A stretch of DNA of 33,698 bases from the IMG/VR virus record IMGVR_UViG_3300007152_000001, positions 1-33,698 of that record; one strand, 5' to 3'. Every line of letters starts with the position of its first letter. The stretch's first letter is position 1. The notes under the pieces were generated by a model. It had not been told where the DNA came from. It ran no database searches and was given only the letters and a program-made list of their open reading frames with translations. This DNA is from a virus. Positions 100 to 21,563 of this stretch are shown one piece after another. Both the position numbers and the translations under genes were made by a program.

Positions 100-138
100 G
101 CGTTCAATCTCTTCAACCTCTGTCAGATAATCGCTCAC
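1..138 (-). CDS. Hypothetical 65-aa protein, N-terminal part; the gene crosses the circular junction and continues at 33599 down to 33540
   Basis: GTG start at 136-138 overlaps the TGA of the upstream gene (GTGA). The frame stays open to base 1 and is in frame with the C-terminal part at the other window end. Joined product: VSDYLTEVEEIERCHVLVYDKDNFNGMQSGIAEVDALDDGEIYVMLEDGTHKPFKRELVNPCFDC. Confidence 0.5.
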   Translation of the reverse strand, partial: MSDYLTEVEEIERCHVLVYDKDNFNGMQSGIAEVDALDDGEIYVML

Positions 139-1013
139 AGTTCACCAACCCATCTGTCATTTTTATCCAGCTTCATTATGACAGGGAAAAATCTGCCGTC
201 CCTAATCATTCCACATCCAAGCATAGGCGGCTTGTTGGTGTATCTGAAAGCGTGCGCCTTTCTGTCAATTAACGAACCGCTGAAAGCCATCCAAGCAACA
301 TGCTGACCCATAGGAACATCTGTCGAGCCTATAAGCGTGTGATGGTGTCCGAGGCAAAGGTTGTAAGGCTTGGCATCTGTAAACAAATTGAAGTGGTTAA
401 TCTTTTCTAAATTCACTTTTGCGCTTTTACCGTCAGCGTGCCCATGTCTGCAAACAGTACCTTGCGTGATGTACTCATCCACCCACTTCCACCCTTCGGG
501 TGCGCCAATAATCTCCTCAAGACTTCTTAGAAAATGAGTTGGCAACTTTGCGCTCTTGCGCTTTCTGTCCAATCGACCTTTTACATGGTTTGAGTGAACG
601 CCAACACCTTTCGGAAACTCCTTAAATAAAGACTGCCAAAAAGCCCTTGCCTTGTAATATTCACCTTCGGGGTTGTCAAAGTCAGGGTCTGTCCCATAAT
701 CACTTAGCCAGTAAAAATCAAATTCGTCACCAATGCAGACAACTTCATCAGGCAAAAACTCGTCCCTAACCGATTTTAAGAAGTGCAAAGCATCTTCATG
801 GTGGAATGGGGCTTGAAGGTCGGGTATAATCAGTGTGGTCATGGTGGACTTTTGCTTAATCTTCCTGTTGTATTCACCGTTTCGGCTTGACCGACAGTTT
901 TTGCATTCTGTCCTGTAACCGTCTTTTGCCTCCTTGCGCTTGGAAAATTCGCTGTATTTTTTCCACTCTCCGCAAAGTCTGCACTCTTTGCCGTCTTTAC
1001 CGCTAAACAACAT
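135..1013 (-). CDS. Calcineurin-like metallophosphoesterase with an N-terminal CxxC...CxxC zinc-ribbon
   Basis: Ordered phosphoesterase motifs: IPDLQAPFHH, IGDEFD, HSNH, RHGH, GHHH. The N-terminus has CRLC...CKNC. AAGGAG RBS upstream of the ATG at 1013. Confidence 0.8.
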   Translation of the reverse strand: MLFSGKDGKECRLCGEWKKYSEFSKRKEAKDGYRTECKNCRSSRNGEYNRKIKQKSTMTTLIIPDLQAPFHHEDALHFLKSVRDEFLPDEVVCIGDEFDFYWLSDYGTDPDFDNPEGEYYKARAFWQSLFKEFPKGVGVHSNHVKGRLDRKRKSAKLPTHFLRSLEEIIGAPEGWKWVDEYITQGTVCRHGHADGKSAKVNLEKINHFNLFTDAKPYNLCLGHHHTLIGSTDVPMGQHVAWMAFSGSLIDRKAHAFRYTNKPPMLGCGMIRDGRFFPVIMKLDKNDRWVGEL

Positions 1014-1021
1014 TTCAATAA

Positions 1022-1049
1022 CTCCTTATTTTTCTTAATTATACCCCAA
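1022..1049 (-). promoter_or_regulatory. Putative promoter -10 (TATAAT, complement of 1038-1043) plus RBS (AAGGAG, complement of 1022-1027) for the phosphoesterase cassette
   Basis: A perfect TATAAT lies just downstream of the lysis-cassette terminator. The -35 is weak (TTGCCC). Confidence 0.35.
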
Positions 1050-1076
1050 AAGAAGAAGGGGGCAAAAATCGCCCCC
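1050..1076 (-). terminator. Rho-independent terminator after the holin-like gene
   Basis: Minus strand reads GGGGGC-gattttt-GCCCCC (1058-1076) followed by TTCTTCTTTT. Confidence 0.7.
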
Positions 1077-1082
1077 TTTCGT

Positions 1083-1280
1083 TTAGTCTTTGTTCTTAGC
1101 TTTAAGCACGTTCGCCCCAAGCAAGTTAATCAGCCAATGCAATTTCTTACCGTACTGGCTTTGTGGCTTGGTAAAAACTGACGCAACCAATGCAAAACCG
1201 CCAACGGTTGTCAGCACAGGCGATGCAACGCTATCAATCACCAATGGCAAAAAGCTTGTTACTGTGTTCCAAATATCCAT
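1083..1280 (-). CDS. Holin-like small membrane protein (65 aa)
   Basis: The internal ATG at 1280 has a strong AAGGAGA RBS. Hydrophobic core (FLPLVIDSVASPVLTTVGGFALVASVF) and charged C-terminus KAKNKD. Sits immediately after the endolysin. Confidence 0.5.
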   Translation of the reverse strand: MDIWNTVTSFLPLVIDSVASPVLTTVGGFALVASVFTKPQSQYGKKLHWLINLLGANVLKAKNKD

Positions 1281-1299
1281 AGGTCTTCTCCTTAGATTG

Positions 1300-1665
1300 T
1301 TAATATTGCCACATCGCCAAGTCGCCATCACGGCAATCAACGTGGACAAACTTCCTCTTTATATTATACGCTATACCACGAAAACCCAAATCATACGCCT
1401 TGGACATAATGCGCATTGCTGTGTCATGGTCGGGTACGCTAAAATCCATTGCTATGCCTTTTGTATGCGTTGAATTTCCGCTTCTTCCTTTGGTCTTGTC
1501 AAAATCAACAGTTCTAAATGCGCAGGTCGGGTGCAATGGGAAGCCAAGCTGGTGACGCAGTTCATCAAACTTTATAAGAGCCTTGACGCTCATTCTGTCA
1601 AAACCGTCCTCACAGCCAAAAGAAACAAAGTTTATTTCATCTTTGGTGAAGTATCTTAGCTTCAT
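1300..1665 (-). CDS. Endolysin, peptidase M15 family (zinc D-Ala-D-Ala / L-Ala-D-Glu peptidase fold)
   Basis: SGNSTHTKGIAMDF ... FVHVD metal-ligand pattern typical of M15 peptidases. The ATG at 1665 overlaps the upstream stop (ATGA). Confidence 0.85.
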   Translation of the reverse strand: MKLRYFTKDEINFVSFGCEDGFDRMSVKALIKFDELRHQLGFPLHPTCAFRTVDFDKTKGRSGNSTHTKGIAMDFSVPDHDTAMRIMSKAYDLGFRGIAYNIKRKFVHVDCRDGDLAMWQY

Positions 1666-2186
1666 TGGAAAGCCCCCATAAATGCCGCCACGCACGCACC
1701 AAGTATACCAGCAAGGGCTATCAACCCCTTACCATTCGATATCAATGTGTCCATGACCGTTTTTGTCTGTTTCAGGTGGGATATATCCGACAGTGATTGT
1801 GCTGGCTTTCCACTCTCGTCCAGCATTATCCTCGACAGGAAGAACTTGAACGGCTGGTCGCCTGTCGGCACTCTCGTTACCAGCAACACCACCTTCACTT
1901 CCCTGCCCCCCTCGAATAGGTACGACTTTTTCAGCAAGTAAAAGTCTATCTTGCCATCTCTCACCAGCTTTGCGTTGCGCTCGTCTATTTTCTTGCTGTC
2001 GGGGTGTGTAATGTCCTGAAATCTGTTTTCCAGCAAATCCGCTGGGGTAACACCCAAAATCTTGCAAAATTGGGGATTGACAGAACGAAACGTGAAATCC
2101 GAGTTCACTATGGCGACCCCAGCAAAGGAAGGATGCCAGCCACTTTGCCAAGCCAGTACCCTTTCTTCCGCTGTTAATCCGTCCAC
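1662..2186 (-). CDS. PAS-domain protein with a C-terminal transmembrane anchor
   Basis: PAS signature GVAIVNSDFTFRSVNPQFCKILGVTPADLLENRFQDITHPDS...DGKI...GGREVKVVLLVTRV. C-terminal hydrophobic helix GLIALAGILGACVAAFMGAF. GTG start. Stop overlaps the endolysin start. Confidence 0.75.
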   Translation of the reverse strand: MDGLTAEERVLAWQSGWHPSFAGVAIVNSDFTFRSVNPQFCKILGVTPADLLENRFQDITHPDSKKIDERNAKLVRDGKIDFYLLKKSYLFEGGREVKVVLLVTRVPTGDQPFKFFLSRIMLDESGKPAQSLSDISHLKQTKTVMDTLISNGKGLIALAGILGACVAAFMGAFQ

Positions 2187-2237
2187 TTTTCATCTCTCGC
2201 TCTTACTTAATGTGCCTATCACTATGGATATATAATA

Positions 2238-2265
2238 ATAGTACACCAGTTATTCACTATTTCAA
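2238..2265 (-). promoter_or_regulatory. Candidate sigma70-type promoter for the lysis cassette (TTGAAA-16-TACTAT)
   Basis: Hexamers read on the minus strand. The -35 overlaps the end of the upstream ORF. Confidence 0.3.
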
Positions 2266-2667
2266 AACGTCAGGGACAAATTCAGCCAACGCCTCGACAG
2301 TTTCAGGAAGCTCTACCGTTTCAGGGAGGTCACGCAAAACTTGCTTTTCAGCTTGAACGTCTACGCCCTTCATGGTTTCAATGTCCAACTCCGCAAGCTT
2401 TTCATCACGCTTGGCACGAATTTCAGCCATTTTAATGTCGCATGCCTTGGCATAGTCAACGTCCACCGTTTCAGTTGGTAGGTCGTCCGTCCACGCATCT
2501 CGGAACGTGCGGTCACAAGGTAGCTGGTCAGCGTCAATAATTCGCCACTCTAGTCCGCTTGGTACGTCTTTTTCTGCCAACTCTTCTAAAGTGCCTTGCC
2601 ACTTTGGTGATGGAATAATCACGCCAACACCACCGTCTAGCTTTTTAAATACAATTCTCTTGTCCAT
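2257..2667 (-). CDS. Hypothetical protein (136 aa); possible fibre assembly or accessory protein, by position only
   Basis: TAATG coupling to the fibre gene. Acidic, helical C-terminal half. Confidence 0.4.
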   Translation of the reverse strand: MDKRIVFKKLDGGVGVIIPSPKWQGTLEELAEKDVPSGLEWRIIDADQLPCDRTFRDAWTDDLPTETVDVDYAKACDIKMAEIRAKRDEKLAELDIETMKGVDVQAEKQVLRDLPETVELPETVEALAEFVPDVLK

Positions 2668-3701
2668 TATGCTAATTCTCCCATTGTCATTGCCGTAACA
2701 AATTCGTGGTCTAACGCCCCACCGTTTGAGGAGTTGCTTGTCCTAATTCTTGTTGAGGTGTTCTGCATCGCACCAACCGCCCTGCTAATTGCGAACAGAG
2801 CGGCGTTTGTCGTAACCCCATCGTCAGCGAGTGCGCATGCACCTGAAATCGCATAATCGTTGTTGGCAAATGTCACGGAATAGTTAATCGTATACTCACC
2901 TGTGCCGTTGTCTGTTATAGAGGACACGTTGTAGCTGTCACGAATTGCAACCGTACCAACGCCATTGAAATTGACCCAAGCCTTGCAAACGCCGTTATGC
3001 TCAATCATATTGGCTGGAGTAGCAACCAAGCTTGCGCCTGTGCCACCTGTGGCTGTTTCTGCTTTAACCTCTGCGTCTGTTGCCAACTCCACAACACCTG
3101 CAACCGTTTCGGTGGCATTTGCAACCGCCGCTGGCGCAACAAATAAACCACCGTCAGAACCAGCTACAATTGCATTGCTTCCGTCTGTTGAAATCGAACT
3201 TGACGCATCAACTTTCAAAGCGTTGTCTGTACCCTCAACAATGAAGTTGCCAGCGTCAGCACTAATAAAGTCACTTGCATCAGCCTTTATCTTGCCTGAA
3301 ACCTCTGTCAAAAGGTTGTCAGCATCACCGCTGTTAATGTCAGAAACTTGCACCGCAAGCTTTTCATCTGCGCCTTTGGTTAAAGTGTTGTTTGCATCTG
3401 CTGAAATCAGATTATCCGCATCAACCTTTAGCTTGTTGGCAGATACTTGCATAAGGTTGTCGGCATCACCGCTGTTAACCGTATCAGCATCAACCTTTAA
3501 AAGACTGTCTGTTCCTTGTTCTAGCAAGTTATCAGCATCAGCGGAAATCAACTCACCACTCAAACTGCCCTTATCAACACCGCTTGCGATATTTTCAGCT
3601 TTAACTTTTCTTGAAACCCCAGCGGAAATGTCAGAAACCAACAGCTCATCTGTTGCGTCTAACGTGACCTTTTCGGGCAAACTTGGTACTGCTCTTGTCA
3701 T
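2667..3701 (-). CDS. Tail fibre protein
   Basis: At least seven [SG]-[AG]-D-A-x-N-[LF] fibre repeats. ATETVAGVVELATDAEV...LVATP motif. C-terminal KAWVNFNG...NVSSITDNGTGEYTINY tip domain. Confidence 0.8.
   Translation of the reverse strand: MTRAVPSLPEKVTLDATDELLVSDISAGVSRKVKAENIASGVDKGSLSGELISADADNLLEQGTDSLLKVDADTVNSGDADNLMQVSANKLKVDADNLISADANNTLTKGADEKLAVQVSDINSGDADNLLTEVSGKIKADASDFISADAGNFIVEGTDNALKVDASSSISTDGSNAIVAGSDGGLFVAPAAVANATETVAGVVELATDAEVKAETATGGTGASLVATPANMIEHNGVCKAWVNFNGVGTVAIRDSYNVSSITDNGTGEYTINYSVTFANNDYAISGACALADDGVTTNAALFAISRAVGAMQNTSTRIRTSNSSNGGALDHEFVTAMTMGELA
3138..3548 (-). repeat. Intragenic tandem peptide repeats of the tail fibre
   Basis: Repeated DADNL/DAGNF units. 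A 26-nt near-identical DNA copy, aaggttgtc[a/g]gcatcaccgctgttaa, occurs at 3312-3337 and 3453-3478. Confidence 0.7.
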
Positions 3702-7023: not shown

Positions 7024-7956
7024 TTACAGGGAGCGTTCATAGCCTTGGATTGTTTTGTACACTTTGTCGCCACGCTTTAGGTCGTCCAAAAACACCGTTA
7101 TGGTACTCTCACGGTCATTCGCTGTCCACCTTACTGGCGCTTCACCATGCAAATAATAAAAGCCGTTCGGGTACTTAAACTTGCCGTCTTCCCTTGATAG
7201 CTGTCCGTTCATCTCAACTGACTGCTCACGAGTTCGGCTGTCAATAACTGACACCATCTGCAAGCGTGCATCTTCACCGCCTTGCACAAGTTCACGGAAT
7301 TGGTTGTTTGACTGTATGGAAGACATGCGCATTGTTTCAGTTCTTGCTATACGGTAAAAATCATAGAAATGACCGTTGGTGTGCGAAAATTTACCGCTTT
7401 TTAGCAAACGCTTGCCCTTGTCCGTCATTCTCATGCCATCACGGCTTCGCAATCCCAGCGTTATTTCAATCTGTCGTGTTGTTCTGTTGATTGATAAACC
7501 TGCTTCGTTGGACTGCTTGATAACCTTTGTAATGTCCTTTGCCATCTTACGACTTCTGAATGTGATGCTCCTGTCGCTTAGAATGCGCCTTGTAATAGCG
7601 AACTCGTCACGCCTTGGCAATTCAGTATAAAACGGAAACGGCTCAATTTCAGGCTCTGCGCCTAAAGTGTTTACAACTAAAAACCTTTGCTCAATAGATG
7701 AACGGTTGAGGCTGTCTATGATGTCCTGCTTGTACTTTCGCAATAAATCTGCATAGTCGCCACCGACCTTAATGGCAACACGACCAAGCATCTGCTCTTG
7801 ACGTGTGGGTGATGCCCTGTAAATAGATGGAATAAGTTGTCTTAGATAGTTATTGATTGACGCTATAACAGAAAAGGCTTGTGCATTCATATCGCCAATG
7901 CGCTTAGCCTCTGCCTGCTTTACAAGTTGTTGCCAATTCTTTTGCGGTCTAATCAT
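7024..7956 (-). CDS. Head morphogenesis protein (Mu F / SPP1 gp7-like)
   Basis: YRIARTETMRM motif and a position immediately after the portal gene. Confidence 0.8.
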   Translation of the reverse strand: MIRPQKNWQQLVKQAEAKRIGDMNAQAFSVIASINNYLRQLIPSIYRASPTRQEQMLGRVAIKVGGDYADLLRKYKQDIIDSLNRSSIEQRFLVVNTLGAEPEIEPFPFYTELPRRDEFAITRRILSDRSITFRSRKMAKDITKVIKQSNEAGLSINRTTRQIEITLGLRSRDGMRMTDKGKRLLKSGKFSHTNGHFYDFYRIARTETMRMSSIQSNNQFRELVQGGEDARLQMVSVIDSRTREQSVEMNGQLSREDGKFKYPNGFYYLHGEAPVRWTANDRESTITVFLDDLKRGDKVYKTIQGYERSL

Positions 7957-9239
7957 TCACCAAAACTAGACAAAGATGCCTCACGCTCTGCCATACCTTC
8001 CTCTGCCAGTTCTTTAGCTGTCTTTTCGTCAACGCCCAAGGCTAACATGATGCGCTTCCATTGAGGCAAGTCAACGCCAGCACGCTCCAAGCTTTCAAGC
8101 GTTTGGATATTGTCTTTTGGAAGGTTGCGTTTAAAGTCGTAGGAAATTTCCGTTGTGTCGTAATCCTGCAAGCCACCAATTGTTGTCCAAAAGCCTTTCA
8201 AAAGCTGGTCTAGCTTCTCAAGTGATTGTTGCCAACTGCGCTCTGTAACCTTTGCGTCTGCTTCCATTAAACGGAAAAGCTGGCTAATCTGAAAAGCTGT
8301 GGCATTAGATAGTGAAGCCAACGCTTTAGGGTCAACGCTTGAAGCTGAAACCCAAATGCCTGACCACGCCTCTTTTGCGACCATCTCCGCAAATGCTGGG
8401 TTAATGTCCTTTGTGATAAACTCTGCTTTAGCGTCACCAGTACCAACAAAAACACCGCTCTTTTGCATCTCGGCTTTGACTGTGTCGTCAATAGTTCCCA
8501 TATCCTTGAGCAATAAATAAGCGTTGCGGAATGCGCTAAACTCTGTCACGTTGTCTGAAATGATGCGGTCATAAGCATCAATCAATCCAACCGCCTTTTG
8601 TGCGTTGCCTCTGCGCTGTTCGTTGTTCTTCCACTCAATAAGCGGAACGCTAAAGAAACCGTGTGGCACTCGCTCTGTCGTGGTTGAGCCACCTTTTGTG
8701 GTGTGGATAATCAAATCCCTTGCGGTGTACTCATAAACCTTCTCAACGTCTTTGTGGCACTCTAAAACGTAGCCACGTTCCTCGCCATCAACCTTGCTAA
8801 TCCATGCGCTTGACGCTGGCACTTGCTTAATACGGACTTTTCTGTCGTCACCTAAAACGCAAAGAGTGAATGTGTTGCCCCAGCCAGCGCAAGAAATCAT
8901 CAGGTCGCTATAAAGTGCGCTTGTGCTGTTTAGGCTGTCAAACTCTCTGTAAGCCTCTTTTACGGCTTCGGGGAAGTTGTCGGTGTACTCTCTCACAATG
9001 TTAGACATATAGCCCGACTTGGTTGTCTGAATGATTGAGAAGTTGTCAAAGGCGGTTTTAATGTTCGGGTCGCTGTCGCTAACCTTTGGTCGTGCAAGAA
9101 TTGGCACGCCGTTGGCATGTTCAGGATTGTCATACTTAAAGTTTGTGGCTGGTTTGCCGATAGAGCGCAGATAGAGGTTGTGTTTTAGTGTAAGCTCTTC
9201 TTTTTTAGCTTGCACCATATCTTTTAAAGTCTTTTGCAT
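7953..9239 (-). CDS. Portal protein (SPP1 gp6-like)
   Basis: GLIDAYDRIISDNVTEFSAFRNAYLLLKD core motif. 428 aa. Coupled to the MuF-like gene. Confidence 0.85.
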   Translation of the reverse strand: MQKTLKDMVQAKKEELTLKHNLYLRSIGKPATNFKYDNPEHANGVPILARPKVSDSDPNIKTAFDNFSIIQTTKSGYMSNIVREYTDNFPEAVKEAYREFDSLNSTSALYSDLMISCAGWGNTFTLCVLGDDRKVRIKQVPASSAWISKVDGEERGYVLECHKDVEKVYEYTARDLIIHTTKGGSTTTERVPHGFFSVPLIEWKNNEQRRGNAQKAVGLIDAYDRIISDNVTEFSAFRNAYLLLKDMGTIDDTVKAEMQKSGVFVGTGDAKAEFITKDINPAFAEMVAKEAWSGIWVSASSVDPKALASLSNATAFQISQLFRLMEADAKVTERSWQQSLEKLDQLLKGFWTTIGGLQDYDTTEISYDFKRNLPKDNIQTLESLERAGVDLPQWKRIMLALGVDEKTAKELAEEGMAEREASLSSFGE

Positions 9240-12049
9240 TATACTTCTCTCGCCTCAATCGTTGCTGTCAAATCGTCATTGTATCTAATGTTTGTTATCA
9301 GCGCCTCGTAAATTTTACCGCTACCAATTTCAAACAAATCGCCCTCATAATCCCAAGTGTATCCACTAGAAAAACCGCTTATACTACCTTTGCCTTTTAT
9401 TATACCATTATTGGCTATCGGGTCAATTGTGACCGTATCCGTAAAGCCTGTGTTTGTTACAGGATAGACGTTTATCACGCTTGTGGAGTTTAGGGCATCA
9501 ATAGAGCGGATTGAAATTGAAGCCTTGTCGGGGATGTCCACTTGGCTGTAAAGCTTAAATCCTACAATGTCGCCACCGTCTGTTAACACCTCTTTAATGT
9601 TGCCTGTGACCTCGCCTGTCATATCGCAAGTGTTAGCGATTAAAACACGGTCAAACAGTCTGCGGTTTAGCCCTTCAAGGTTTACGCTAAATTCAAAACT
9701 GTTGCGCTTTTCTTGAATGTTACGCAAGCTGTAAGAATAGCGGTCAACAAGGTGGTCACGGTTGTTAATGTACTTGCTTTCCTCTACAACGAACTGGTAA
9801 TCCACATCGCTTGTGCCAGCTTTGGGCGTTTCGTAAACGTCACCATCGTAATAGTAAAGACTTACTTCGTCCTCTGTGTAGGTGTCTTCATTGATAAACT
9901 TAACCCTCAAAGCGTCAACGGTTTTCCCTGCGTTTGGTGTCCATGTGAAATCCCACGAGTTGTGAGGCGTGAACATGTCCATCGGCTCTGCGTCAGGGTC
10001 GTCAAAAACAAATACATACTTACCTTCAACAAGCGTAAAGCCAGCTTTACAGTTGTCCAAAATCTTAGCGATAACCGCACCAACCTTTGTCGCCTCTGTG
10101 ATTAAACCGTCAGCATAATAGTTGTTTGTTTCACAGAAGTCGTATAAGTCCACAAGGCTATCATTGTCAATAAAGCTGACATCTTCCGCCCTTGGGTTGA
10201 CCTTTGTGTCAGTTAATAGGTAACGCACAATCGCCGCTGGGTTGCGTGTTTCTGCAACCGTGCTCCAATCTGCACCGTTCCACACAGGGCATTCAAGCTT
10301 TCCGATGTAGTTGTACTTCTTCAACTCACCGCTCAAAGACTTGTAAGCAATCGCTTCGACCGCAATTTGATTGACGCTTGGCAATATGTCGGAGTTTACG
10401 GCATCGCCATCAACGTGAAAGTTAAACTCGCTCATTGTAACTGTGCCGACATCACGGCTAGACTTTTCCAGCAAGTCAGCGGAGCGAACTCTAACGGTGT
10501 ATTGACCTTGTGGCAACTCAATCCCGATAGTCCTATAAAATAACTCATTCGCCTGTTTAACATCGTCAGGGGCTTCAAGGTGAACGGTTGAACCGCTAAC
10601 ACTTGTTGTCGAGCCTGAAAGCGGTTGCTTAACACCGTCTAGGTCACGGATATAAATGTCTGTTGCGTCTGAAATTGGACTATAAGAGCCAGCACCGACG
10701 AGTTTATACTCAATATCCACACTCGTTGTACGCCTTGAAATAGAACCGTTGTCATTCTGCCTGTACAAACCTTGTGGGAATGAAATGATAAAATCAATGT
10801 CAGTCGTGTTAACTGGGCTTGTTTCGATGACCTCCGTCACAACGCCAGTATATTTGTTTATACCGTTGTTTAGTGTTTCCGTGTTGTTGTAGTCGTCCGT
10901 TGTCAATTCCTCACTAATTAGCACCGTGTCCAGTTCGTTGTCGTTTTCTTGCACCGTGATCCGAGTGTCAGTTATAGGCTCAAAGCGTGTGTTTAAAATT
11001 TCAGTTGCGTTTTCAGCCCATGAAGTGCTTACAGTCGCTCGGTATGTTGTACCGCTAACAAGCGTTAAATCGCCAACCTCAATCAGGAAGGTGTCAGTCA
11101 AGTCTACGTTACCGCCAGCAGTATCAACCGCAACGGTTACTTGAAACTCTTTATTGCCCCAGTTGGCTGTGTCTACGTTGGTAAACTCAATAATGCCCTC
11201 ATATGCCACGCTGGTTGTTGTGGTTGCTTGGTTGTAGGTAAAAGTCGATGCCTGTGTGACGCCCTCTTGGTTGTCAACGGTCAACTGCTCCTCTTTTGGA
11301 ACTGAAAGCACGTTGTCAAAGCCAATAAAGGCAGAGCCACCAAAGCTTCTGTTGATTGTCAGGTATTCGGTGGAAAAGTCGCCTATTGCGCTTTCGCCAA
11401 GCTTTTCATCGTAAATATTTACGTCATTAAAGTTAGCTATAAAATATTGCAAATACTTGTTGGTAGGCGAGCCATCATTTACAAGCCTGTAAGGTCGCTG
11501 ACCATAAAAAGGTGTTTGAAGTGTTTGACCGAATAGAACAGGAAGGATACCTTTTGACGTTGTGTTTTCAGAGCCACGAATTGAAGCACGTTGCCTTACA
11601 GGGTCGCCCTCTGCCAAGCCGTCAGGGGTTGGAGTTAAAAGCCTTGTGAGTAGGCTCACACCTGTACCAACCGCAAGGGCAATACCAGCTTGAACAAGGG
11701 CAGGGTTGCCAGTAACCACACCAGCAACAATAAGAACAGCCGCAACCACAAAGCCGACAATTTCACCAACGTCATTCGGTCTAACGTAAACGTCTACAAC
11801 GTCACCAGCATTAAGCTTTTGGTATGGCGTAGCCTTGCGACCATTCACAAGCACCGTTTCAATCTGTCTGCGTGTGAAGTGTGCGATAAGGCGTGAACCA
11901 GCGATGTTTCGGTCTTCCGTTTCTTTTGCGCCAACGGAGTGCTGTGTTACAAACACAACGCCATTCTTTTTGCTGAACAACAAACGTGCAATTTTACGCT
12001 CTAGCGCAAGCAAGCCACCTTTTAACTTCTCTTTAATCTTATAAAACAT
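9239..12049 (-). CDS. Central tail fibre / host-specificity protein: lambda gpI-like N-terminal module fused to a gpJ-like body
   Basis: N-terminus: NAGDVVDVYVRPND followed by a hydrophobic stretch IVGFVVAAVLIVAGVVTGNPALVQAGIALAVG (gpI-like). Body: J-like segment NPAAIVRYLLTD. 936 aa, following a K-like peptidase. Confidence 0.75.
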   Translation of the reverse strand: MFYKIKEKLKGGLLALERKIARLLFSKKNGVVFVTQHSVGAKETEDRNIAGSRLIAHFTRRQIETVLVNGRKATPYQKLNAGDVVDVYVRPNDVGEIVGFVVAAVLIVAGVVTGNPALVQAGIALAVGTGVSLLTRLLTPTPDGLAEGDPVRQRASIRGSENTTSKGILPVLFGQTLQTPFYGQRPYRLVNDGSPTNKYLQYFIANFNDVNIYDEKLGESAIGDFSTEYLTINRSFGGSAFIGFDNVLSVPKEEQLTVDNQEGVTQASTFTYNQATTTTSVAYEGIIEFTNVDTANWGNKEFQVTVAVDTAGGNVDLTDTFLIEVGDLTLVSGTTYRATVSTSWAENATEILNTRFEPITDTRITVQENDNELDTVLISEELTTDDYNNTETLNNGINKYTGVVTEVIETSPVNTTDIDFIISFPQGLYRQNDNGSISRRTTSVDIEYKLVGAGSYSPISDATDIYIRDLDGVKQPLSGSTTSVSGSTVHLEAPDDVKQANELFYRTIGIELPQGQYTVRVRSADLLEKSSRDVGTVTMSEFNFHVDGDAVNSDILPSVNQIAVEAIAYKSLSGELKKYNYIGKLECPVWNGADWSTVAETRNPAAIVRYLLTDTKVNPRAEDVSFIDNDSLVDLYDFCETNNYYADGLITEATKVGAVIAKILDNCKAGFTLVEGKYVFVFDDPDAEPMDMFTPHNSWDFTWTPNAGKTVDALRVKFINEDTYTEDEVSLYYYDGDVYETPKAGTSDVDYQFVVEESKYINNRDHLVDRYSYSLRNIQEKRNSFEFSVNLEGLNRRLFDRVLIANTCDMTGEVTGNIKEVLTDGGDIVGFKLYSQVDIPDKASISIRSIDALNSTSVINVYPVTNTGFTDTVTIDPIANNGIIKGKGSISGFSSGYTWDYEGDLFEIGSGKIYEALITNIRYNDDLTATIEAREV

Positions 12050-12383
12050 CTAGCACCTTATATATTTCTGCCTTTTTAGGGATTGCCGTTGTGGTTGCGC
12101 CTTTTCTCGTCATGTGAAAATAATCCTTTGAGTTTAACGCATAGCCACAATGGAATGTGTCTTTACCGCTCTTAAATACAATTATACAACCCTTTGAGGC
12201 TCGTTGCACCTTCTCCAGCTTTAAATTGCTTCTAAACTCGTTATAGGCTCTTTGCTCGTCCTCAACCACAAAAGGGAAGTCAGGCAAGTCCATGTTGTGG
12301 CGGTCTTTGAATATCGCCTGAACAAGCGTCCAGCAATCCACCTTACCCAATTCAAACTGCTTGCTAAAGTATTCAGGCTTCAT
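12039..12383 (-). CDS. NlpC/P60-type tail protein (lambda gpK-like)
   Basis: Catalytic-Cys context GKVDCWTLVQ and downstream FHCGY His. Sits between the L-like and J-like genes. Confidence 0.65.
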   Translation of the reverse strand: MKPEYFSKQFELGKVDCWTLVQAIFKDRHNMDLPDFPFVVEDEQRAYNEFRSNLKLEKVQRASKGCIIVFKSGKDTFHCGYALNSKDYFHMTRKGATTTAIPKKAEIYKVLDVL

Positions 12384-12856
12384 ATGTACAAGTTCGGGAA
12401 TAAGTTGGGGTTGTATCTCACGGTTGACAAATTAAATTCAAGGCTCACACGCAAGTTTAAAACCATGCTCGTTGCGTCCTTCTTAACAACAATGCCCTGG
12501 ACCTCAAACACCCCTGCTGGGTGTGCGTCTACGTTTAACGTGTCGCCGTCCTTTTCAATCTGTGCCACCCATACGGAACAAATGATGCTCTCGTTGTCGG
12601 TTACGTTTCTAATCTCGTTGGCAAGCGTTCTGTCCACGTTAGACAACACAAGCCTTGCGCCCTGCGTTTCACCTTGAGAATTAGCTACGAATTTAAATGG
12701 ATATGGGTTGAACGTGTTGCCGTTATACTCCACCGCCTCGGTGTTATCCACAAGCCTGAACGTCTGCGATAGTCCGCTGTGTTCAAACTGCAACAATACC
12801 TTAATTGACCGCCCCAGCTTTCGACTAAATGCGCTTTTTATCATTTCAATAGGCAT
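12380..12856 (-). CDS. Minor tail protein (gpL position; DUF1833-like)
   Basis: YNGNTFNPYPFKF...ARLVLSNVDRTLANEI pattern and synteny. Confidence 0.55.
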   Translation of the reverse strand: MPIEMIKSAFSRKLGRSIKVLLQFEHSGLSQTFRLVDNTEAVEYNGNTFNPYPFKFVANSQGETQGARLVLSNVDRTLANEIRNVTDNESIICSVWVAQIEKDGDTLNVDAHPAGVFEVQGIVVKKDATSMVLNLRVSLEFNLSTVRYNPNLFPNLYI

Positions 12857-13293
12857 TACACACGCACCTCAACTTGTACTGTAATCTGTTCACCGCTGTC
12901 AGTTACAACCAACTCGCCGCTGTCAGTCACAAGGTTTTGGTCGATGATGTAAGACACTTCCTCTAACGCTAGTGTGATGTTTACATAGTAACGGTTGCTT
13001 ATAGTCGTAAAGGTTGGCTTGCCGACAATGCTGGCTGTTCTTGTCATATCCACACGGCAGTCATAATATTCAAAGCTTAAAGAACCCTGCCTAATCTCTC
13101 GGCGGTAAAAGTCCATAAAGTCTAGGTATTGCACCTGTGTTAAGATGAACTGCCCTTGTATCAGGTCTTTTACGTCTGTAAACTCTTGTCTACGGTACAA
13201 AGAACCAGCGTCTGGCGTTACCTCGCTGTAACCCTGCTGAATTTCGTTTTTAAAGCTGTTAGCGATAATCTCGCCAAATCTCCACGTTGCCAT
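12856..13293 (-). CDS. Minor / distal tail protein (gpM position)
   Basis: Synteny only: directly after the tape measure, with TAATG coupling. Confidence 0.45.
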   Translation of the reverse strand: MATWRFGEIIANSFKNEIQQGYSEVTPDAGSLYRRQEFTDVKDLIQGQFILTQVQYLDFMDFYRREIRQGSLSFEYYDCRVDMTRTASIVGKPTFTTISNRYYVNITLALEEVSYIIDQNLVTDSGELVVTDSGEQITVQVEVRV

Positions 13294-15033
13294 TTATGCC
13301 CCCTGTACTCCACTTGAACGCTGTCTAGCCAATGCCGAACTCACAGCACCGTCACTTCTTTGTGAGGATAATACTGCGCTGACCTCTCTCACAATAATAT
13401 CAAACTCGTTGTTGGGTCGCTGTACCGTTTCAATCTGCGCTTGACTGTTGTTAATCACGTTGATTGTAGGACTTGCGCCTTGTGCTTCTACGCCCAAGCG
13501 TCCGTCACTTGTTCTGCGTAGTGGCATGATAGCTTCTGCACCAGCCTCGCCCATTAAGCCTGTGCCACCGTTAGCCATAGGGAAGAATGTTGGCGCATTT
13601 ACAACGCCACCTTTAGCGAATGCCTTGACGCTTCCGTTTTCAAATGCGTTGCCTTTTGCGTTGGCTGTAACATCACCGCCACCAAAGCTTCCGATAACGT
13701 CCGTAAATATGCCAGCAAGCTTTTCCTGTGCAATCTTCCTTGCGATACCGCCAATAATGTCTAAAACAACACCGCCAAACTGTCTAGCCGCATCTTCACC
13801 GCTTCTAAATCCATCCACAAACACATCAGCAAAGCCATTGCCTAAATCGTCAACGCCCTCTTGCGCAAAGTCAATCAATCTTGCGGTCTTCTGTACGCTA
13901 TCGTCTGCAACCTTTTCAGTTTCGCCCTCAACCTGTTGCACAGCACGCTTCAACTCTTCAATCTTAGGAGTGACCGTGTCCTGCTGTGATGCTGGTTCGG
14001 GAAGTATGTTGCCCTGTGCGCTATCAAATAGCAATGCGTCACGTTCAGCACGCAGTTTTGCCAACTCACGCACAAAGAAATCCAAACGCTCCTCTGCGCT
14101 AGAACCAAAAACACCATCAAAGAAGCCGACACCATCTGCAATTTCTTGCTTTAGGCTTGCAATAACTTCCTCTGTTTCCCTAATCTTGCCGTCTAAGGTG
14201 AATGTGCCTGAAACGAAATCATCAATACCACGCACAAGGTCGCTCAATACGCTAACCGTATCAGTTGCTGTGGGTAAAAGAACCTCGCCAAGTGTTGCGC
14301 TTAAATCCTCAAGAGCACCATCAAGAACCCTTGAAGAGTTTGCAAAGCTGTCCTGTGAACGTGCAAAGTCGCCGATTGCGTTTTTGGACTGACCCAAAGC
14401 CAACTCAAGTGTTAATAGTGCTTTTTGCTGTCGGTCTAATTCACCAACAATGCCTTTTTCTTCCGCAAGCCTTTTAATGTCAGCCTCACCAATGGCGATA
14501 CCTAAAGACTTAACCGCCTCACGCTCACCCAGTAAGGCACTTGTTAAAGCCTGTGACGCTCTCGTTGCTCCGCCTTCTACGTTGGTAAAAGAAGCAAGGT
14601 CTACCGCTAGACGTGTTACAGCATCAGAAACCTCTAACGCCTTTTCACCTGTAAAGCCCAAACCTGTCAAAAGGTCGCCTGTGTCTGAAAGGAATTGTTG
14701 TGAAGCCTTGGAGGACAAGCCAAAGCTTTCAGCAATCTCGTCAGCCGTTTGCGTGGCTTCATCTCTTACGTCTTGGAATACTACGTTAAACTTGTTAGCC
14801 GTTTCTTCTGCATCGCTTGCGGCGTTAATCAACGCACCGCCAAATCTTGAAACCTCACGAACCGCTAAAAAGCTACCAACACCCACAAGGGCGTTTTTAA
14901 GGCTAACCATGGACTTGTCAGTTTTGCTTGCGCTACTGGATACGTCCTTTAACTCTCTATCTAGCTTGTCAAAGTTTCTAGCCGACTGCTGGGCGTTATC
15001 TTCAACTCTAATCCGAACTTTACCATCTGCCAT
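13294..15033 (-). CDS. Tape measure protein
   Basis: 579 aa, Ala/Gly/Ser-rich and helical. Follows the G/GT chaperone pair. Confidence 0.85.
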   Translation of the reverse strand: MADGKVRIRVEDNAQQSARNFDKLDRELKDVSSSASKTDKSMVSLKNALVGVGSFLAVREVSRFGGALINAASDAEETANKFNVVFQDVRDEATQTADEIAESFGLSSKASQQFLSDTGDLLTGLGFTGEKALEVSDAVTRLAVDLASFTNVEGGATRASQALTSALLGEREAVKSLGIAIGEADIKRLAEEKGIVGELDRQQKALLTLELALGQSKNAIGDFARSQDSFANSSRVLDGALEDLSATLGEVLLPTATDTVSVLSDLVRGIDDFVSGTFTLDGKIRETEEVIASLKQEIADGVGFFDGVFGSSAEERLDFFVRELAKLRAERDALLFDSAQGNILPEPASQQDTVTPKIEELKRAVQQVEGETEKVADDSVQKTARLIDFAQEGVDDLGNGFADVFVDGFRSGEDAARQFGGVVLDIIGGIARKIAQEKLAGIFTDVIGSFGGGDVTANAKGNAFENGSVKAFAKGGVVNAPTFFPMANGGTGLMGEAGAEAIMPLRRTSDGRLGVEAQGASPTINVINNSQAQIETVQRPNNEFDIIVREVSAVLSSQRSDGAVSSALARQRSSGVQGA

Positions 15034-15634
15034 CAGCTAAACTCCATCAATGCTCTTACACCGTTGCAAACAATAGCAGGGTGCTTTTCAACTTCTATCT
15101 TCATCATACCACATTTATGCCACCTGTATAAATCCAGTATCTCAAAAAACTGCTCGTCCACAAGGTCAAACAATTCACCTTTCTTGCCTATCGCAACAGG
15201 GTTTTTAACATTGCCAACGAAATAGAGGCGGTCACGTTCCGCCCCTGAAATCTCTTTGTATTTTCCTGTTTTAAGAAGCACAAAGGCGGTGGTTACTTTT
15301 TTTCAATTTCAAACACGCTCTTGCGAATGTCTTTGAACTTTAAAACAACGTCCGTCATAACGGAAGAAATAACGCCGTTACTGTACTTGAACAAGTCCGC
15401 CATCGTTTCGTATTCGATTAAATCGCCGTTCTCGTCTTCAATTTCAGGCTTGTTCTCAAACTCGATAAATAAGCTGTTCATAACGTCTAAAATCTCTTTA
15501 GAAGTCTGTACAGTCGCAAACTCGATAACGTCTGCCTGTGCAGGCTGTCGGAAGATAAGCGCAAACTCACCTTCCAACTGCTCACAAATGCTAGGCACTA
15601 AACGTATGTTTTCTGTAAGTACCTTCAATCGCAT
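15033..15634 (-). CDS. Tail assembly chaperone GT-type fusion, made by a -1 frameshift at 15296-15302
   Basis: After a -1 slip on A_AAA_AAG the reading continues GTA ACC ACC GCC TTT GTG CTT CTT AAA. That is in frame with the 15033-15281 ORF (..LLKTGKYKEISG..). Confidence 0.75.
15293..15634 (-). CDS. Tail assembly chaperone (gpG-like)
   Basis: 113-aa acidic protein between the major tail and tape measure genes. Ends in a slippery heptamer. Confidence 0.75.
   Translation of the reverse strand: MRLKVLTENIRLVPSICEQLEGEFALIFRQPAQADVIEFATVQTSKEILDVMNSLFIEFENKPEIEDENGDLIEYETMADLFKYSNGVISSVMTDVVLKFKDIRKSVFEIEKK
15296..15302 (-). promoter_or_regulatory. Programmed -1 ribosomal frameshift site A_AAA_AAG
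   Basis: Minus strand reads GAA AAA AAG TAA. The heptamer is in the correct phase and abuts the zero-frame stop. Confidence 0.8.
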
Positions 15635-16305
15635 TATACAACCGCCTTACTGTAAAACGCTGGGTTAATGTTGTTAACACCATCATCAGTAACACGCACA
15701 TTTGCTGAAAACGTCTGCGCAGAACCTTGGGAAATGCCGCTAGATGTTGACAGAATAGTGATAGGCAAGAAGTAAAATTCTGTCGGCTCGCCTTGAGTTG
15801 ACGCCTTGTTTACTTCAAGTTGCAGATAGAAAATATCGCCGTTTTGTTGTGATACTGTTGCGGTTGAGCCATCTGCGGAAAGTGAAACGGTGTCAATAAA
15901 GCGGTTAACAATATCCTTAACCTCTTCGTTACCAGCTTCGTAAACCCCATCAAATGAACCTGAAAGGTCTGTACGACCAGCAATGTAAGTTTTAATGTCG
16001 TCACAAAGAACAGTTGTTTCAATCTCGTCTTTATTGAAGTCAAGAGTTCCGTTTTGAACGTAGCACATGTTCGTGAATGTTACTGGTGCAACATCATCGT
16101 CAACCGCTGGTGTGTCTGTTGTTTCAAGGTAAACGAGGTAGCCAGCAAGAATACCTGTGGGAAGCGTTGAACCGCTTGTTGCCACGGATTTAACAAGATA
16201 CCAGCCATCGCTTGGGATTGGTGTTGTGCCGTCCCCCTCAATAAGGGAGCCAACTGTACCTTTGGCAAAGTTGCCGTTTAGGTCTGTAAGTCGTTTTGTT
16301 GCCAT
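15634..16305 (-). CDS. Major tail (tube) protein
   Basis: 223 aa, directly upstream of the G/GT genes and downstream of the tail-completion genes. Confidence 0.7.
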   Translation of the reverse strand: MATKRLTDLNGNFAKGTVGSLIEGDGTTPIPSDGWYLVKSVATSGSTLPTGILAGYLVYLETTDTPAVDDDVAPVTFTNMCYVQNGTLDFNKDEIETTVLCDDIKTYIAGRTDLSGSFDGVYEAGNEEVKDIVNRFIDTVSLSADGSTATVSQQNGDIFYLQLEVNKASTQGEPTEFYFLPITILSTSSGISQGSAQTFSANVRVTDDGVNNINPAFYSKAVV

Positions 16306-16734
16306 TTAATTAACCTTTGTATAATTGAACGTTTTAGCTAAAACATCAACAGCCAAGCCGTTTGTTAGCGTCTGTGCGCTAGGGCTTGCGCCATGTGTAG
16401 TCCTATTGATTGTATAACTGACAGCACCCAATGTCAAAGTGGGTATTTGTGTCAGAAATTCATTAAGTTGCTGTTTAATGTAAAAGCTGTTTTTCATGTC
16501 GGTGTAGTAAATATTAAACTGGATTAAGCTGTTTCCGCTGTCAAACTGTTCATCACATAGCGTTTGTGGGTCGCCGTCACTATCCAGCACATACATAATA
16601 GCATAGGGTGCTTCGGTGCTTTCGGGCGCTTCGCCAAAGTGAATTGACGGCGTAAGATCTGCAATAGGTGAACCACCGCTGTCGGTGACTTGGAAGTTGT
16701 CCTTTACATACTGAAATAACGCTTGTTCAAACAC
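16306..16734 (-). CDS. Tail terminator / tail completion protein (DUF3168-like)
   Basis: Size and position. The ...PYAIMYVLDS... pattern is typical of this family. GTG start overlaps the upstream stop. Confidence 0.55.
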   Translation of the reverse strand: MFEQALFQYVKDNFQVTDSGGSPIADLTPSIHFGEAPESTEAPYAIMYVLDSDGDPQTLCDEQFDSGNSLIQFNIYYTDMKNSFYIKQQLNEFLTQIPTLTLGAVSYTINRTTHGASPSAQTLTNGLAVDVLAKTFNYTKVN

Positions 16735-17113
16735 GTTTCTTTAACTCCCTTATAAATATACCCTCAACCTGCTTCTGCACCGTTCTTGCGGCGCTTCTCA
16801 TTACAGGGTTTGGTCGTCTGTTCATTACCCTTGTAAACGGCTTGACGTTCTGCGTCTTGCCATTAACCACTCTTGTGTGACCGCTTACTTGCTCCACAAA
16901 ATTGCTAAAACCGTACTCAATAGCCGCACTATATTCAGCGTTTGCCACAACCTCGTCACCCTCAATGCGTATCTGTCTGCGATAAAAGCCTGTGTCCGCT
17001 GGTGCTGTAACCTTTGCCTGTGCGTCCAATCTAGCAAGCACACGCTTTTTCGTGCTGTCGATAACGTCCTCAATCACTTGCTCATATAGAGGGACTTTAA
17101 CTTCAACCGTCAT
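16727..17113 (-). CDS. HK97 gp10-family head-tail component
   Basis: APADTGFYRRQIRIE...AEYSAAIEYG motif. Confidence 0.7.
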   Translation of the reverse strand: MTVEVKVPLYEQVIEDVIDSTKKRVLARLDAQAKVTAPADTGFYRRQIRIEGDEVVANAEYSAAIEYGFSNFVEQVSGHTRVVNGKTQNVKPFTRVMNRRPNPVMRSAARTVQKQVEGIFIRELKKRV

Positions 17114-17432
17114 TATCAAATACCAAGCTGTATTCTACATGGTGCGCCTTAATGCCTGTCACACCGTTAGACTGCGAACCAGCGCCGCTCACAAGATAAG
17201 ACTTTGAGCCATCGCTCACCTTGTCCTTTTCTTGAATGTCCACACCAACGTCAGCAAACAACACCCCAGCAACGTTTGAAGTGTCTTTACCGTTCAGGAA
17301 AGTGTTGCTGTTAGATGGTGCTTGAATGATGCCCTTCACCATGTGCGAAAAAGCGTAGCCACTAGGCGAACCAAAGTCACCATCTGAAAAGCGGTATACT
17401 GAAATCGGCTTGTAATATCCTTTAAGCGACAA
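17103..17432 (-). CDS. Head closure / head-tail joining protein (SPP1 gp16 / HK97 gp9-like)
   Basis: TTG start at 17432 preceded by AGGAGAA. Family-like pattern ...KDKVSDGSKSYLVSG...HHVEYSL. Confidence 0.55.
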   Translation of the reverse strand: MSLKGYYKPISVYRFSDGDFGSPSGYAFSHMVKGIIQAPSNSNTFLNGKDTSNVAGVLFADVGVDIQEKDKVSDGSKSYLVSGAGSQSNGVTGIKAHHVEYSLVFDNDG

Positions 17433-18162
17433 AGTTTGTTCTCCTGTAACTTTCGAGTTGTGTTGTGAAGTGTGAAGGGTAAAGCAAAGAGCCAACCATC
17501 ACGTCACCGTTATCATAAGAATAGTTGCCAATGCGCTCACTCTTCTTGTCGCTGACTGTACGGCTAAACACGTCCCAGTTAATCATTTGCTCAACCACTT
17601 GCTCCACAGCCGTTGGAATGTCGCTTAAGAACGCCACAGCAAGCTCTGTCGTGTCTTTTGTGTTTGGATTATCAATAGTAATCTGCCCTGTGCTTTGTGC
17701 TGTTACATATCCGCTCACGCTGTTACGCAGTCCGCCCTTGAATGTTACAAGGTCGCCAACTTGGAAGATATCTTGCTCTAAATTCGTCACAACACCACTA
17801 GCAAACGTATAAAGGCTTGTGTCGCTCTCATACGCTTCGTAATCACGAGCCAACGCAATCGGAGTGAACTCCCAAAAGCCTTCATTGAAGCGGTATGTGT
17901 TGTCTTGCAATCTGCGTGATACATAAAACCAGTTGTTCAGCCATTGCATCACGTTTTCAAGCGTTGTGTGAATAGTGCTTTCAATGCGCAAGTCTTTGTT
18001 AGCCTCAATGCGTGTGGCTGTTCCGCCTGTTACTTGGTAGCTGTGACCTCGTGTGTAAGGCGATGCAGTCAAAGAGCAAAGCCATGTGCCGTCACTTGCT
18101 GGCAACGTATCTTGCACAAAGTCGTAGTCATTCCATCGCTTTACTGTAAATAATTCAATCAC
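17422..18162 (-). CDS. Head-tail connector / adaptor protein (gp6-like C-terminal region)
   Basis: GTG start at 18162 in a GTGA overlap. C-terminal IPTAVEQVVEQMINW...SERIGNYSY resembles gp6-type adaptors. Confidence 0.45.
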   Translation of the reverse strand: MIELFTVKRWNDYDFVQDTLPASDGTWLCSLTASPYTRGHSYQVTGGTATRIEANKDLRIESTIHTTLENVMQWLNNWFYVSRRLQDNTYRFNEGFWEFTPIALARDYEAYESDTSLYTFASGVVTNLEQDIFQVGDLVTFKGGLRNSVSGYVTAQSTGQITIDNPNTKDTTELAVAFLSDIPTAVEQVVEQMINWDVFSRTVSDKKSERIGNYSYDNGDVMVGSLLYPSHFTTQLESYRRTNFVA

Positions 18163-18353
18163 TCGTCTAAATCCTCTATGTGTTTGGCATAAATGCCGTC
18201 CGTCCAACCAACATGGCACTTTACAACCTTATAAAACATTCTAGCATTATTTTTGTCAGGATAAAAGAACGAGCCTTGTAAATAACCTTCCCAGTCTACC
18301 GTGGATTGTTTTCCGTCCTTTTTTAAGTGTCCGTATATGTAAACTTTTCGCAT
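18159..18353 (-). CDS. Hypothetical protein (64 aa)
   Basis: TAATG coupling to terL and GTGA coupling to the next gene. Confidence 0.5.
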   Translation of the reverse strand: MRKVYIYGHLKKDGKQSTVDWEGYLQGSFFYPDKNNARMFYKVVKCHVGWTDGIYAKHIEDLDE

Positions 18354-21391: not shown

Positions 21392-21553
21392 TCAACCCTT
21401 CCGACTTACTACAAAATCAAGAATTGATAGCAAAGACACAACAACAGCAAGCGTTGCAAGCCCTTCCTGACCATTCATGATGTTGATATGCGCAAGAGAT
21501 GCAAAAATAAAAGCGCCGATAAGCCTTGAGTATTTTTTGTAAAACTTTTTCAT
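21392..21553 (-). CDS. Small membrane protein (53 aa), below the ORF-track cutoff
   Basis: AAGGAGA RBS. Product MKKFYKKYSRLIGAFIFASLAHINIMNGQEGLATLAVVVSLLSILDFVVSRKG has two hydrophobic segments. Confidence 0.4.
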   Translation of the reverse strand: MKKFYKKYSRLIGAFIFASLAHINIMNGQEGLATLAVVVSLLSILDFVVSRKG

Positions 21554-21563
21554 GTCCATCTCC

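Follow-up and report, generated by a model that had tools for sequence, protein, structure and literature searches.

A putative tail-anchored PAS protein family encoded beside phage endolysin genes

Lysis timing is a central trait for phage fitness, and the accepted list of lysis components, i.e. holin, antiholin, endolysin and spanin, has lately been extended by releasin, disruptin and Lcc6. Here we describe PAS-TM, a protein family defined by a 174-aa protein that is encoded directly before the endolysin in a 33,698-nt viral sequence (IMG/VR record IMGVR_UViG_3300007152_000001, positions 1 to 33,698; this whole stretch is hereafter termed the window). It comprises a PAS domain and a predicted C-terminal transmembrane domain (TMD). 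In T4-type lysis, which employs the antiholins RI and RIII with holin T, a separate protein or a large non-membrane domain tunes holin triggering on signal. The releasin of phage Mu, gp25, is a membrane-tethered protein whose mass is nearly all cytoplasmic, with hardly any periplasmic part; its gene is located among those for lysis, and it is needed for release of the signal-arrest-release (SAR) endolysin in this holin-less phage (PMC9239132). Members of the releasin family occur with cytoplasmic endolysins too, and the action of gp25 is thought to be independent of specific endolysin contact (PMC9239132). Lcc6, a 65-aa membrane protein of the Shewanella prophage LambdaSo, is required for lysis and exerts its effect at pinholin level, showing that holin, endolysin and spanin make up an incomplete parts list (bioRxiv 10.1101/2024.01.23.576932).

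By analogy, PAS-TM appears most like an accessory factor of the releasin or Lcc6 type, but with a mirror-image topology and a PAS fold. As with the releasins, PAS-TM genes are found both before SAR endolysins, in cassettes with no small holin-like gene, and together with soluble endolysins; the holin-less pairing with a SAR endolysin is true of three loci (L009, L010 and L036), not of the window, where the endolysin is soluble and a 65-aa membrane protein is present. PAS-TM differs from the releasins in that it has no DUF2730 match, in that its TMD is C-terminal whereas that of releasin is N-terminal, and in that its cytoplasmic domain has the PAS fold. Lcc6, with 65 residues and an N-terminal TMD, is closer to the 65-aa protein of the window than to PAS-TM, by size and layout only. 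A location directly upstream of a SAR endolysin and Rz/Rz1 genes, and a Gly/Ala-rich TMD with small-xxx-small motifs, recall the pinholin S21 68 and class II holins; PAS-TM, however, has one TMD at its extreme C terminus, no basic tail, no dual-start motif and a folded cytoplasmic domain of 125 residues. There is no sequence or fold relation to the T4-type antiholins, of which RI resides in the periplasm and RIII is a soluble protein that binds one particular holin domain, whereas PAS-TM has no conserved holin partner. With cellular PAS sensors, PAS-TM shares a true PAS fold and sequence family, and its layout (N-terminal cytoplasmic PAS domain, linker, membrane segment) is reminiscent of the first third of Aer. 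Unlike these sensors, it has no output domain (kinase, GGDEF, HAMP or MCP) and no cofactor signature, and it is phage-encoded and linked to lysis genes.

Fold, membrane segment and distribution of PAS-TM

The gene and the regions of its product, as assigned from profiles, an AlphaFold2 (AF2) model and the family alignment, are as follows.

1662..2186, minus strand: PAS-TM gene, 174 aa, GTG start (2184-2186), encoding a putative tail-anchored cytoplasmic PAS protein
2142..2171, minus strand: N-cap helix, residues 6-15, EERVLAWQSG, with a conserved LAW motif (DSSP on the AF2 model)
1812..2138, minus strand: PAS core, about residues 17-125, five beta strands plus helices (Pfam, TIGR00229, Foldseek)
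1728..1811, minus strand: variable linker (residues 126-135, low confidence), then a juxtamembrane helix (residues 136-153) ending in Lys (AF2 model and alignment)
1668..1727, minus strand: predicted C-terminal transmembrane segment, residues 154-173, GLIALAGILGACVAAFMGAF, rich in small residues and followed by one residue (Kyte-Doolittle 2.33)

PAS-TM belongs to the PAS superfamily by both profile and fold, in agreement with what an earlier sequence-only reading of this DNA had proposed. The window protein passes the Pfam cut-offs narrowly (PAS_9, 27.7 bits against 27; PAS_4, 24.0 bits against 23.1) and that of the NCBIfam family TIGR00229, sensory_box, clearly (36.5 bits against 22.9). The AF2 model, for which a 30-sequence family alignment was the input, has a mean pLDDT of 84 and contains the five-stranded antiparallel sheet with flanking helices that the superfamily requires (strands 23-27, 33-36, 82-90, 96-106 and 115-122), preceded by the N-cap helix. 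When the model was compared with the PDB using Foldseek, each of the top 50 matches was a PAS or LOV domain (probability 1.0), with target-normalised TM values reaching 0.78. A search of all PDB sequences with the family profile had no match at E ≤ 1e-3; PAS-TM is thus a divergent PAS, linked to solved PAS structures by fold comparison only. An exhaustive phmmer search of 1.84 billion representatives returned 15,872 matches to PAS-TM at E ≤ 1e-3, many being proteins of 800-2,600 aa that align over 3-8 separate stretches, including many multi-PAS histidine kinases; eight matches that were checked (268-1,172 aa) are all multi-PAS proteins, three of them with histidine-kinase domains. The identity between the PAS domain and those of host multi-PAS kinases is 27-37%.

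Within the family alignment, Trp13 is nearly invariant and Trp17, just after the N-cap helix, is invariant. As judged by eye, the Cys that forms the LOV adduct (NCRFLQ-type motif) is absent, the family instead having 'xRFQD' with a variable Arg55, and no heme-ligating His is conserved in the F-alpha helix (residues 62-76). On this reading of the alignment there is no LOV or heme signature in the family, and the earlier proposal that the domain senses host cues (redox, light or small molecules) draws no backing from these positions or from the profile search of solved PAS chains.

The single hydrophobic C-terminal helix that had been noted from the sequence (Kyte-Doolittle 17-mer value 2.33) is a family feature: a 17-mer value of at least 1.5 is reached in 79 of 84 members, and the peak lies within the last 35 residues in 83 of 84. 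In the AF2 model, residues 136-173 form one long helix and the pLDDT falls below 50 at residues 133-139; across the family, the linker varies in both length and sequence. Of 83 members, 71 have a Lys ahead of the hydrophobic segment, and between 0 and 12 residues follow that segment (family median 6.5; one in the window protein). An N-in/C-out, tail-anchor topology is predicted because there is no signal peptide, because of the Lys before the TMD and because so few residues lie beyond it. The TMD contains GxxxG in 45 of 83 members, compared with 16.7 expected from per-segment shuffles, and G...[GAS] in 79 of 83. The cytoplasmic domain is mildly acidic, with a family median net charge of -2; that of the window protein is +2.

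With respect to known lysis families, the C-terminal segment supplies the at least one TMD expected of a holin, whereas, at 174 aa and with one residue after the TMD, the protein is not of the small kind that has a highly charged, hydrophilic C-terminal tail. An i-spanin identity was rejected in view of the topology, there being no N-terminal TMD, no lipobox and at most 12 possibly periplasmic residues. A Pfam search at E ≤ 1 gave only PAS families and a weak HTH_26 match, with none to DUF2730 (releasin), and searches of Pfam, PHROGs and NCBIfam did not match PAS-TM to any holin, spanin or XhlA family.

Homologue searches showed that the family has at least 84 members, which are 155-194 aa long, share a layout of a conserved N-terminal region of about 125 residues, a variable linker and a hydrophobic C terminus, and have a mean column identity of 49% across the whole protein. 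They come only from metagenomic phage contigs and a few metagenome-assembled genomes, and the sources, where they give a name, call them 'PAS domain S-box-containing protein'. There is no PHROG family for PAS-TM. Searches of 50,697 GenBank phage records by tblastn found nothing, whether the query was the window protein (cut-offs of E ≤ 1e-3 or E ≤ 10) or the family member P0022 (E ≤ 1), and a second IMG/VR scan with an alignment of the divergent subfamily gave no further loci. In BFVD, a handful of small PAS proteins from 'uncultured Caudovirales phage' have similar folds, at 12-21% identity. Literature searches on PAS domains with holins, antiholins or lysis cassettes, and on tail-anchored holins, found nothing relevant. 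PAS-TM is therefore a new family, undescribed in the literature found and without a member in GenBank phage records, in keeping with the earlier remark that a PAS domain is not a standard lysis component. Its absence from cultured phages and from PHROGs means that annotation pipelines give just 'PAS domain protein' and miss the lysis context.

The GTG start of the window gene is supported by homologues that share the N terminus MDGLT.EER; a 154-aa ORF in another frame that overlaps the gene (1729-2193, minus strand) was rejected as spurious, the homologues backing the PAS frame. Non-ATG starts (GTG or TTG) are found in 11 of the 19 PAS-TM genes for which a genomic context was analysed, an unusually high share, which suggests selection for low expression.

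Genomic contexts and lysis cassettes

The 19 non-redundant contexts are the window and L001, L003, L005, L008, L009, L010, L013, L022, L023, L029, L030, L032, L033, L036, L038, L039, L040 and L046. A recognised peptidoglycan hydrolase is adjacent to, or within four genes of, PAS-TM in 18 of them, such that the occurrence of PAS genes beside endolysins in other phages, which the sequence-only reading had put forward as a check, is borne out. The hydrolases belong to nine families and a recognised endolysin is directly the next gene in 13 of the 19 loci. The occupants of the endolysin slot are listed below.

Window: Peptidase_M15_3 endolysin
L030 and L038: PHROG 465 M15-type endolysin (no Pfam match)
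L001: PHROG 1259-like endolysin
L005: GH19 endolysin
L008: Hydrolase_2 endolysin
L009, L010, L013, L023 and L036: GH24 endolysin
L022, L039 and L046: GH108 endolysin
L003, L029 and L033: Amidase_2 endolysin
L032: lambda-R-like endolysin, PHROG 90
L040: uncharacterised DUF5675 protein in the endolysin slot

The PAS-TM stop and the next start overlap by 4 nt in eight of the 19 loci, and overlap or lie at most 2 nt apart in 15. An all-against-all BLAST of the neighbouring ORFs of 16 loci found PAS-TM to be the sole protein common to all of them; tail fibres form the next-largest cluster, with five loci, and no conserved phage partner of PAS-TM emerged. What lies upstream depends on the locus, i.e. 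a tail fibre and chaperone, GTA-type tail genes, an 885-962-aa protein after a P22-type portal, or spanin-like genes; because these upstream genes vary, the lysis module is the constant neighbour. Membership of PAS-TM in the lysis module is thus supported by gene context, and there is good support for its taking part in lysis at the inner membrane. The earlier suggestion of an antiholin or holin regulator is upheld as regards the lysis module; its antiholin part is weakened, since no cognate holin is conserved among the cassettes. As an additional comparison, a related phage without PAS-TM was sought; the candidate, Dulem virus 31, which gives the best terminase match (63%), was rejected because it is a sheathed-tail phage that is related in its terminase alone.

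The PAS-TM cassettes fall into different arrangements with respect to their membrane proteins. L009, L010 and L036 have the order PAS-TM, GH24 endolysin with an N-terminal SAR-like anchor, and Rz-Rz1, which is the phage-21-type order with PAS-TM in the place of the pinholin; the i-spanin gene has an embedded or overlapping lipoprotein ORF, and there is no small holin-like gene in the cassette. No other membrane-protein gene at all is present in the L009 cassette, and a 203-aa multi-pass membrane protein is encoded just upstream in L010 and L036. A small holin-like gene is absent from seven cassettes, these three together with L005, L008, L029 and L033. The endolysins of L005 (6618-7469, GH19), L008 (6547-7236, Hydrolase_2) and L033 (3244-3972, Amidase_2) carry at their C termini a hydrophobic segment rich in Gly and Ala, followed by another TMD and a basic tail, and no small holin-like gene lies between PAS-TM and the spanin-like genes in these loci.

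By contrast, ten of the 11 cassettes with soluble endolysins (the window, L001, L003, L013, L022, L023, L030, L032, L038 and L039) encode an extra small protein with 1-3 TMDs, one of which is a GTA_holin_3TM protein; the eleventh, L029, has none, its other membrane-associated gene encoding a 79-aa lipoprotein. The small membrane proteins of the different cassettes are mutually unrelated in all-against-all BLAST. This pattern suggests that PAS-TM alone makes no holes large enough for a soluble enzyme and that, where the endolysin is membrane-tethered, it may accompany or replace the membrane step. Because several cassettes carry i-spanin genes with embedded or overlapping lipoprotein ORFs, the hosts are taken to be Gram-negative.

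About one third of the loci have, immediately upstream of PAS-TM, a gene for a protein of 200-264 aa with 4-5 TMDs and no Pfam or PHROG match, at the following positions.

L003:5232-5951, L005:5258-5869, L008:5326-5961, L010:175-786, L023:7185-7979 and L036:3360-3971: multi-pass protein upstream of PAS-TM
L032:6884-7513: multi-pass protein downstream, not upstream, of PAS-TM

For the L008 protein there are 78 homologues, 176-239 aa in length and without informative names or Pfam matches, many of them on phage-sized contigs. The multi-pass proteins of different loci have marginal mutual similarity and none is encoded in the window; they could be holins or other lysis or envelope factors.

The window itself carries a compact three-gene cassette at its left end, where all genes are on the minus strand. 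From 5' to 3', and including transcription signals, the features around PAS-TM are these.

2667-3701, minus strand: tail-fibre-like gene, which heads the left-end gene order
2257-2667, minus strand: gene for a 136-aa protein with a weak Phage_tail_APC match, between the tail-fibre-like gene and the PAS-TM gene
2238..2265, minus strand: promoter-like match, TTGAAA-16-TACTAT, 9/12 to consensus, weak and probably not significant
1662..1665, minus strand: ATGA, in which the PAS-TM stop overlaps the endolysin start (read in the sequence)
1300..1665, minus strand: endolysin, 121 aa, ATG start, Peptidase_M15_3 (Pfam 2e-14 and PHROG 894 'endolysin')
1288..1293, minus strand: Shine-Dalgarno sequence AAGGAG, 7 nt before the ATG of the 65-aa gene
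1083..1280, minus strand: gene for an orphan membrane protein of 65 aa, a candidate for the holin or for another factor at that level (hydropathy, pI 9.6)
1056..1078, minus strand: intrinsic terminator closing the late/lysis transcription unit (10-bp stem with 6 GC pairs, T-run)

The ATGA overlap with an M15 endolysin is as it had been described, and the endolysin is soluble, having neither a signal peptide nor a SAR segment; its nearest isolate relative is the endolysin of Pseudoalteromonas phage H105/1 (39% identity). Downstream, the strong ribosome-binding site and the terminator of the earlier account are present, whereas its term 'holin-like' for the 65-aa protein derives from hydropathy alone, i.e. 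from a hydrophobic N-terminal half (residues ~3-37) and a basic, amphipathic tail. This protein has no family match in Pfam, PHROGs or NCBIfam and a single homologue, 91% identical, among 5.8 billion proteins. Its C-terminal LLGAN..KAKNK motif recurs in a 108-aa protein with three TMDs in another locus (L003:6964-7290). The promoter that had been placed just upstream of PAS-TM amounts to the lone 9/12 match, and promoter-like sites in that region are at chance level (three found, 3.1 expected in shuffled sequence); the idea of a self-contained three-gene lysis unit with its own promoter loses its footing with it. A 10/12 promoter-like site (1038-1065, minus strand) overlaps the terminator hairpin. 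As had been remarked, no spanin genes are apparent: a search for a lipobox ORF (o-spanin or u-spanin) found none on either strand of the whole window, whereas relatives of PAS-TM lie with clear Rz/Rz1 pairs.

Proposed role and alternatives

The explanation that we prefer, and which could about equally prove right or wrong, is that PAS-TM is a generic, membrane-tethered cytoplasmic accessory factor of the lysis cassette that would act at the holin-level step at the inner membrane. PAS-TM would be made late and in translational coupling with the endolysin, as shown by the gene overlap, and its level would probably be low, given the GTG start in the window and the predominance of non-ATG starts among its relatives. 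The C-terminal helix would insert post-translationally, N-in/C-out, leaving the PAS domain in the cytoplasm on a flexible linker and juxtamembrane helix. The PAS domains may then pair via the conserved N-cap helix and the beta sheet, as is general behaviour for PAS domains, and the GxxxG-type TMD may pack on itself or on Gly/Ala-rich segments of a holin or of the anchor of a SAR or membrane-tethered endolysin, this packing setting the moment at which the effector is triggered or released. The PAS domain would be at least an oligomerisation or regulatory module. Such partner-independent action would explain how one protein can accompany endolysins of nine families, as well as holin-like proteins that are unrelated, and how it can occupy the holin slot before SAR endolysins. 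Direct binding of the endolysin, in the manner of the chaperone Ms6 Gp1, is unlikely because the partner endolysins come from nine unrelated families.

Several observations weigh against an accessory role at the membrane. Its function is read throughout from gene context and sequence features, and the uncharged stretch of the TMD is short (median 17 residues). A near-consensus sigma-70 promoter (TTGACT-18-TATAAT, extended TG, 11/12) lies between PAS-TM and the endolysin at L030:5593-5622, such that the L030 lysis genes may be transcribed from a promoter of their own, and in L023 a hairpin that resembles a terminator comes after PAS-TM; therefore, in some phages, PAS-TM may close the structural/tail operon. 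A relative at 34% identity, in L014, sits among nucleotide-metabolism genes, away from lysis genes. Four of the seven cassettes without a small holin-like gene have a multi-pass protein of 200-240 aa just upstream, which is possibly the real holin, and the tails of the L005, L008 and L033 endolysins resemble a module of the class II holin or pinholin type joined to the enzyme, which may thus carry its own holin-like module.

Two alternatives that we regard as unlikely come next. PAS-TM might itself be the hole-former, a tail-anchored protein of the pinholin type whose single-TMD helices oligomerise into small depolarising channels while the PAS domain holds them apart or gathers them. The pinholin S21 68 forms channels with TMD2 once TMD1 has left the membrane, and a single-TMD hole-former would fit the holin position of PAS-TM directly before a SAR endolysin and Rz/Rz1 in L009, L010 and L036, the composition of L009 (no other membrane-protein gene) and of L029 (just the 79-aa lipoprotein), the TMD being rich in small residues and enriched in GxxxG, and the lack of a conserved partner. 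However, the charged C-terminal cytoplasmic tail of holins is missing; PAS-TM is larger than typical holins, with a 125-aa domain conserved far beyond the holin norm; the 58% share of non-ATG starts argues for a low copy number; and the extra 1-3-TMD protein in ten of the 11 soluble-endolysin cassettes implies that PAS-TM is not enough for soluble enzymes such as the M15 endolysin of the window. Likewise, a profile of the C-terminal 42 residues, compared with S21 68 among 1,425 sequences, gave 5.0 bits and E = 1.7, which is not significant, and a pinholin-like TMD was rejected.

The other is a sensor-gated trigger, a tail-anchored protein similar to a pinholin or releasin, in which the PAS domain would respond to the metabolic, redox or energy state of the host and, via the connecting helix, switch the GxxxG TMD between an inert and a depolarising or effector-releasing state; we hold this to be doubtful.

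Rather less probable, and quite unlikely in our view, is the model of the sequence-only reading, in which PAS-TM is a true antiholin or holin regulator whose PAS domain detects a host cue, be it redox, energy or a small molecule, and holds back or allows holin triggering accordingly. PAS is a typical sensor module, the nearest cellular relatives of this one are repeats in multi-PAS sensor kinases, and in the window PAS-TM coexists with a separate holin-like protein of 65 aa. Moreover, conservation of the PAS core in phages that share nothing else suggests constraint by a conserved ligand or host factor, and in the AF2 model the helix that runs from just past the PAS core into the TMD resembles a J-alpha output helix. 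A conserved contact between PAS domain and holin is, however, improbable given that the holin-like neighbours are unrelated and sometimes absent, and, with no Cys at the LOV position, a variable Arg55 in 'RFQD' and no conserved F-alpha His, no cofactor can be inferred; nor is there a sequence match to solved PAS chains. PAS-TM is also not a holin isoform, unlike dual-start antiholins.

A role outside lysis, as a late, moron-like membrane accessory at the tail-fibre/lysis junction, which is a common site of accessory genes, e.g. a decoy PAS that blunts host sensor kinases or a superinfection exclusion factor, would accommodate the identity to host kinases, the promoter (L030) and terminator (L023) signals between PAS-TM and the lysis genes and the distant L014 relative, but is highly unlikely, as PAS-TM tracks the endolysin and not the tail fibre (it follows a portal gene and the 885-962-aa protein in L040 and L046, follows spanin-like genes in L033 and precedes amidase and terminase genes in L029) and, in most loci, has stop/start overlaps with lysis genes that are atypical of autonomous morons.

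Other features of the window and significance

Beyond the lysis terminator lies a gene for a 292-aa metallophosphoesterase (135-1013, minus strand; PHROG 221, 1e-40), the N-terminal Cys-rich segment of which matches endonuclease VII and HNH-type PHROGs. A small ORF at ~21,500-21,730 (minus strand) has an Hfq-like core, PVMVFLVNGIKLMGTLDQV, as the sequence-only reading had pointed out. The gene order over 7953-19537 (minus strand) is unusual: a terminase-like gene (18353-19537) comes first, then a 579-aa ORF that has no family match and lies where a tape-measure gene would be expected, and then DUF1833 and J-like tail genes (9239-15033); the SPP1-type portal gene (7953-9239) appears only after these, ahead of ORFs without a Pfam match. 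The best relative of the terminase is from a lemur-gut virus (63% identity) and the next are from Parabacteroides phages (38%); since the endolysin points instead to marine Alteromonadales phages, the host of the window virus is uncertain.

If the preferred reading is correct, PAS-TM would represent a further class of holin-level factor, portable between cassettes and found with endolysins of nine kinds in phages that are unrelated. As far as we have found, no factor of this sort before it employs a domain type normally used for sensing, and PAS-TM would thereby offer a direct route from host state to the lysis clock. Were the PAS domain to gate the trigger in response to a host cue, host physiology would feed directly, through a ligand-sensing domain, into the timing of lysis in many uncultured aquatic phages.

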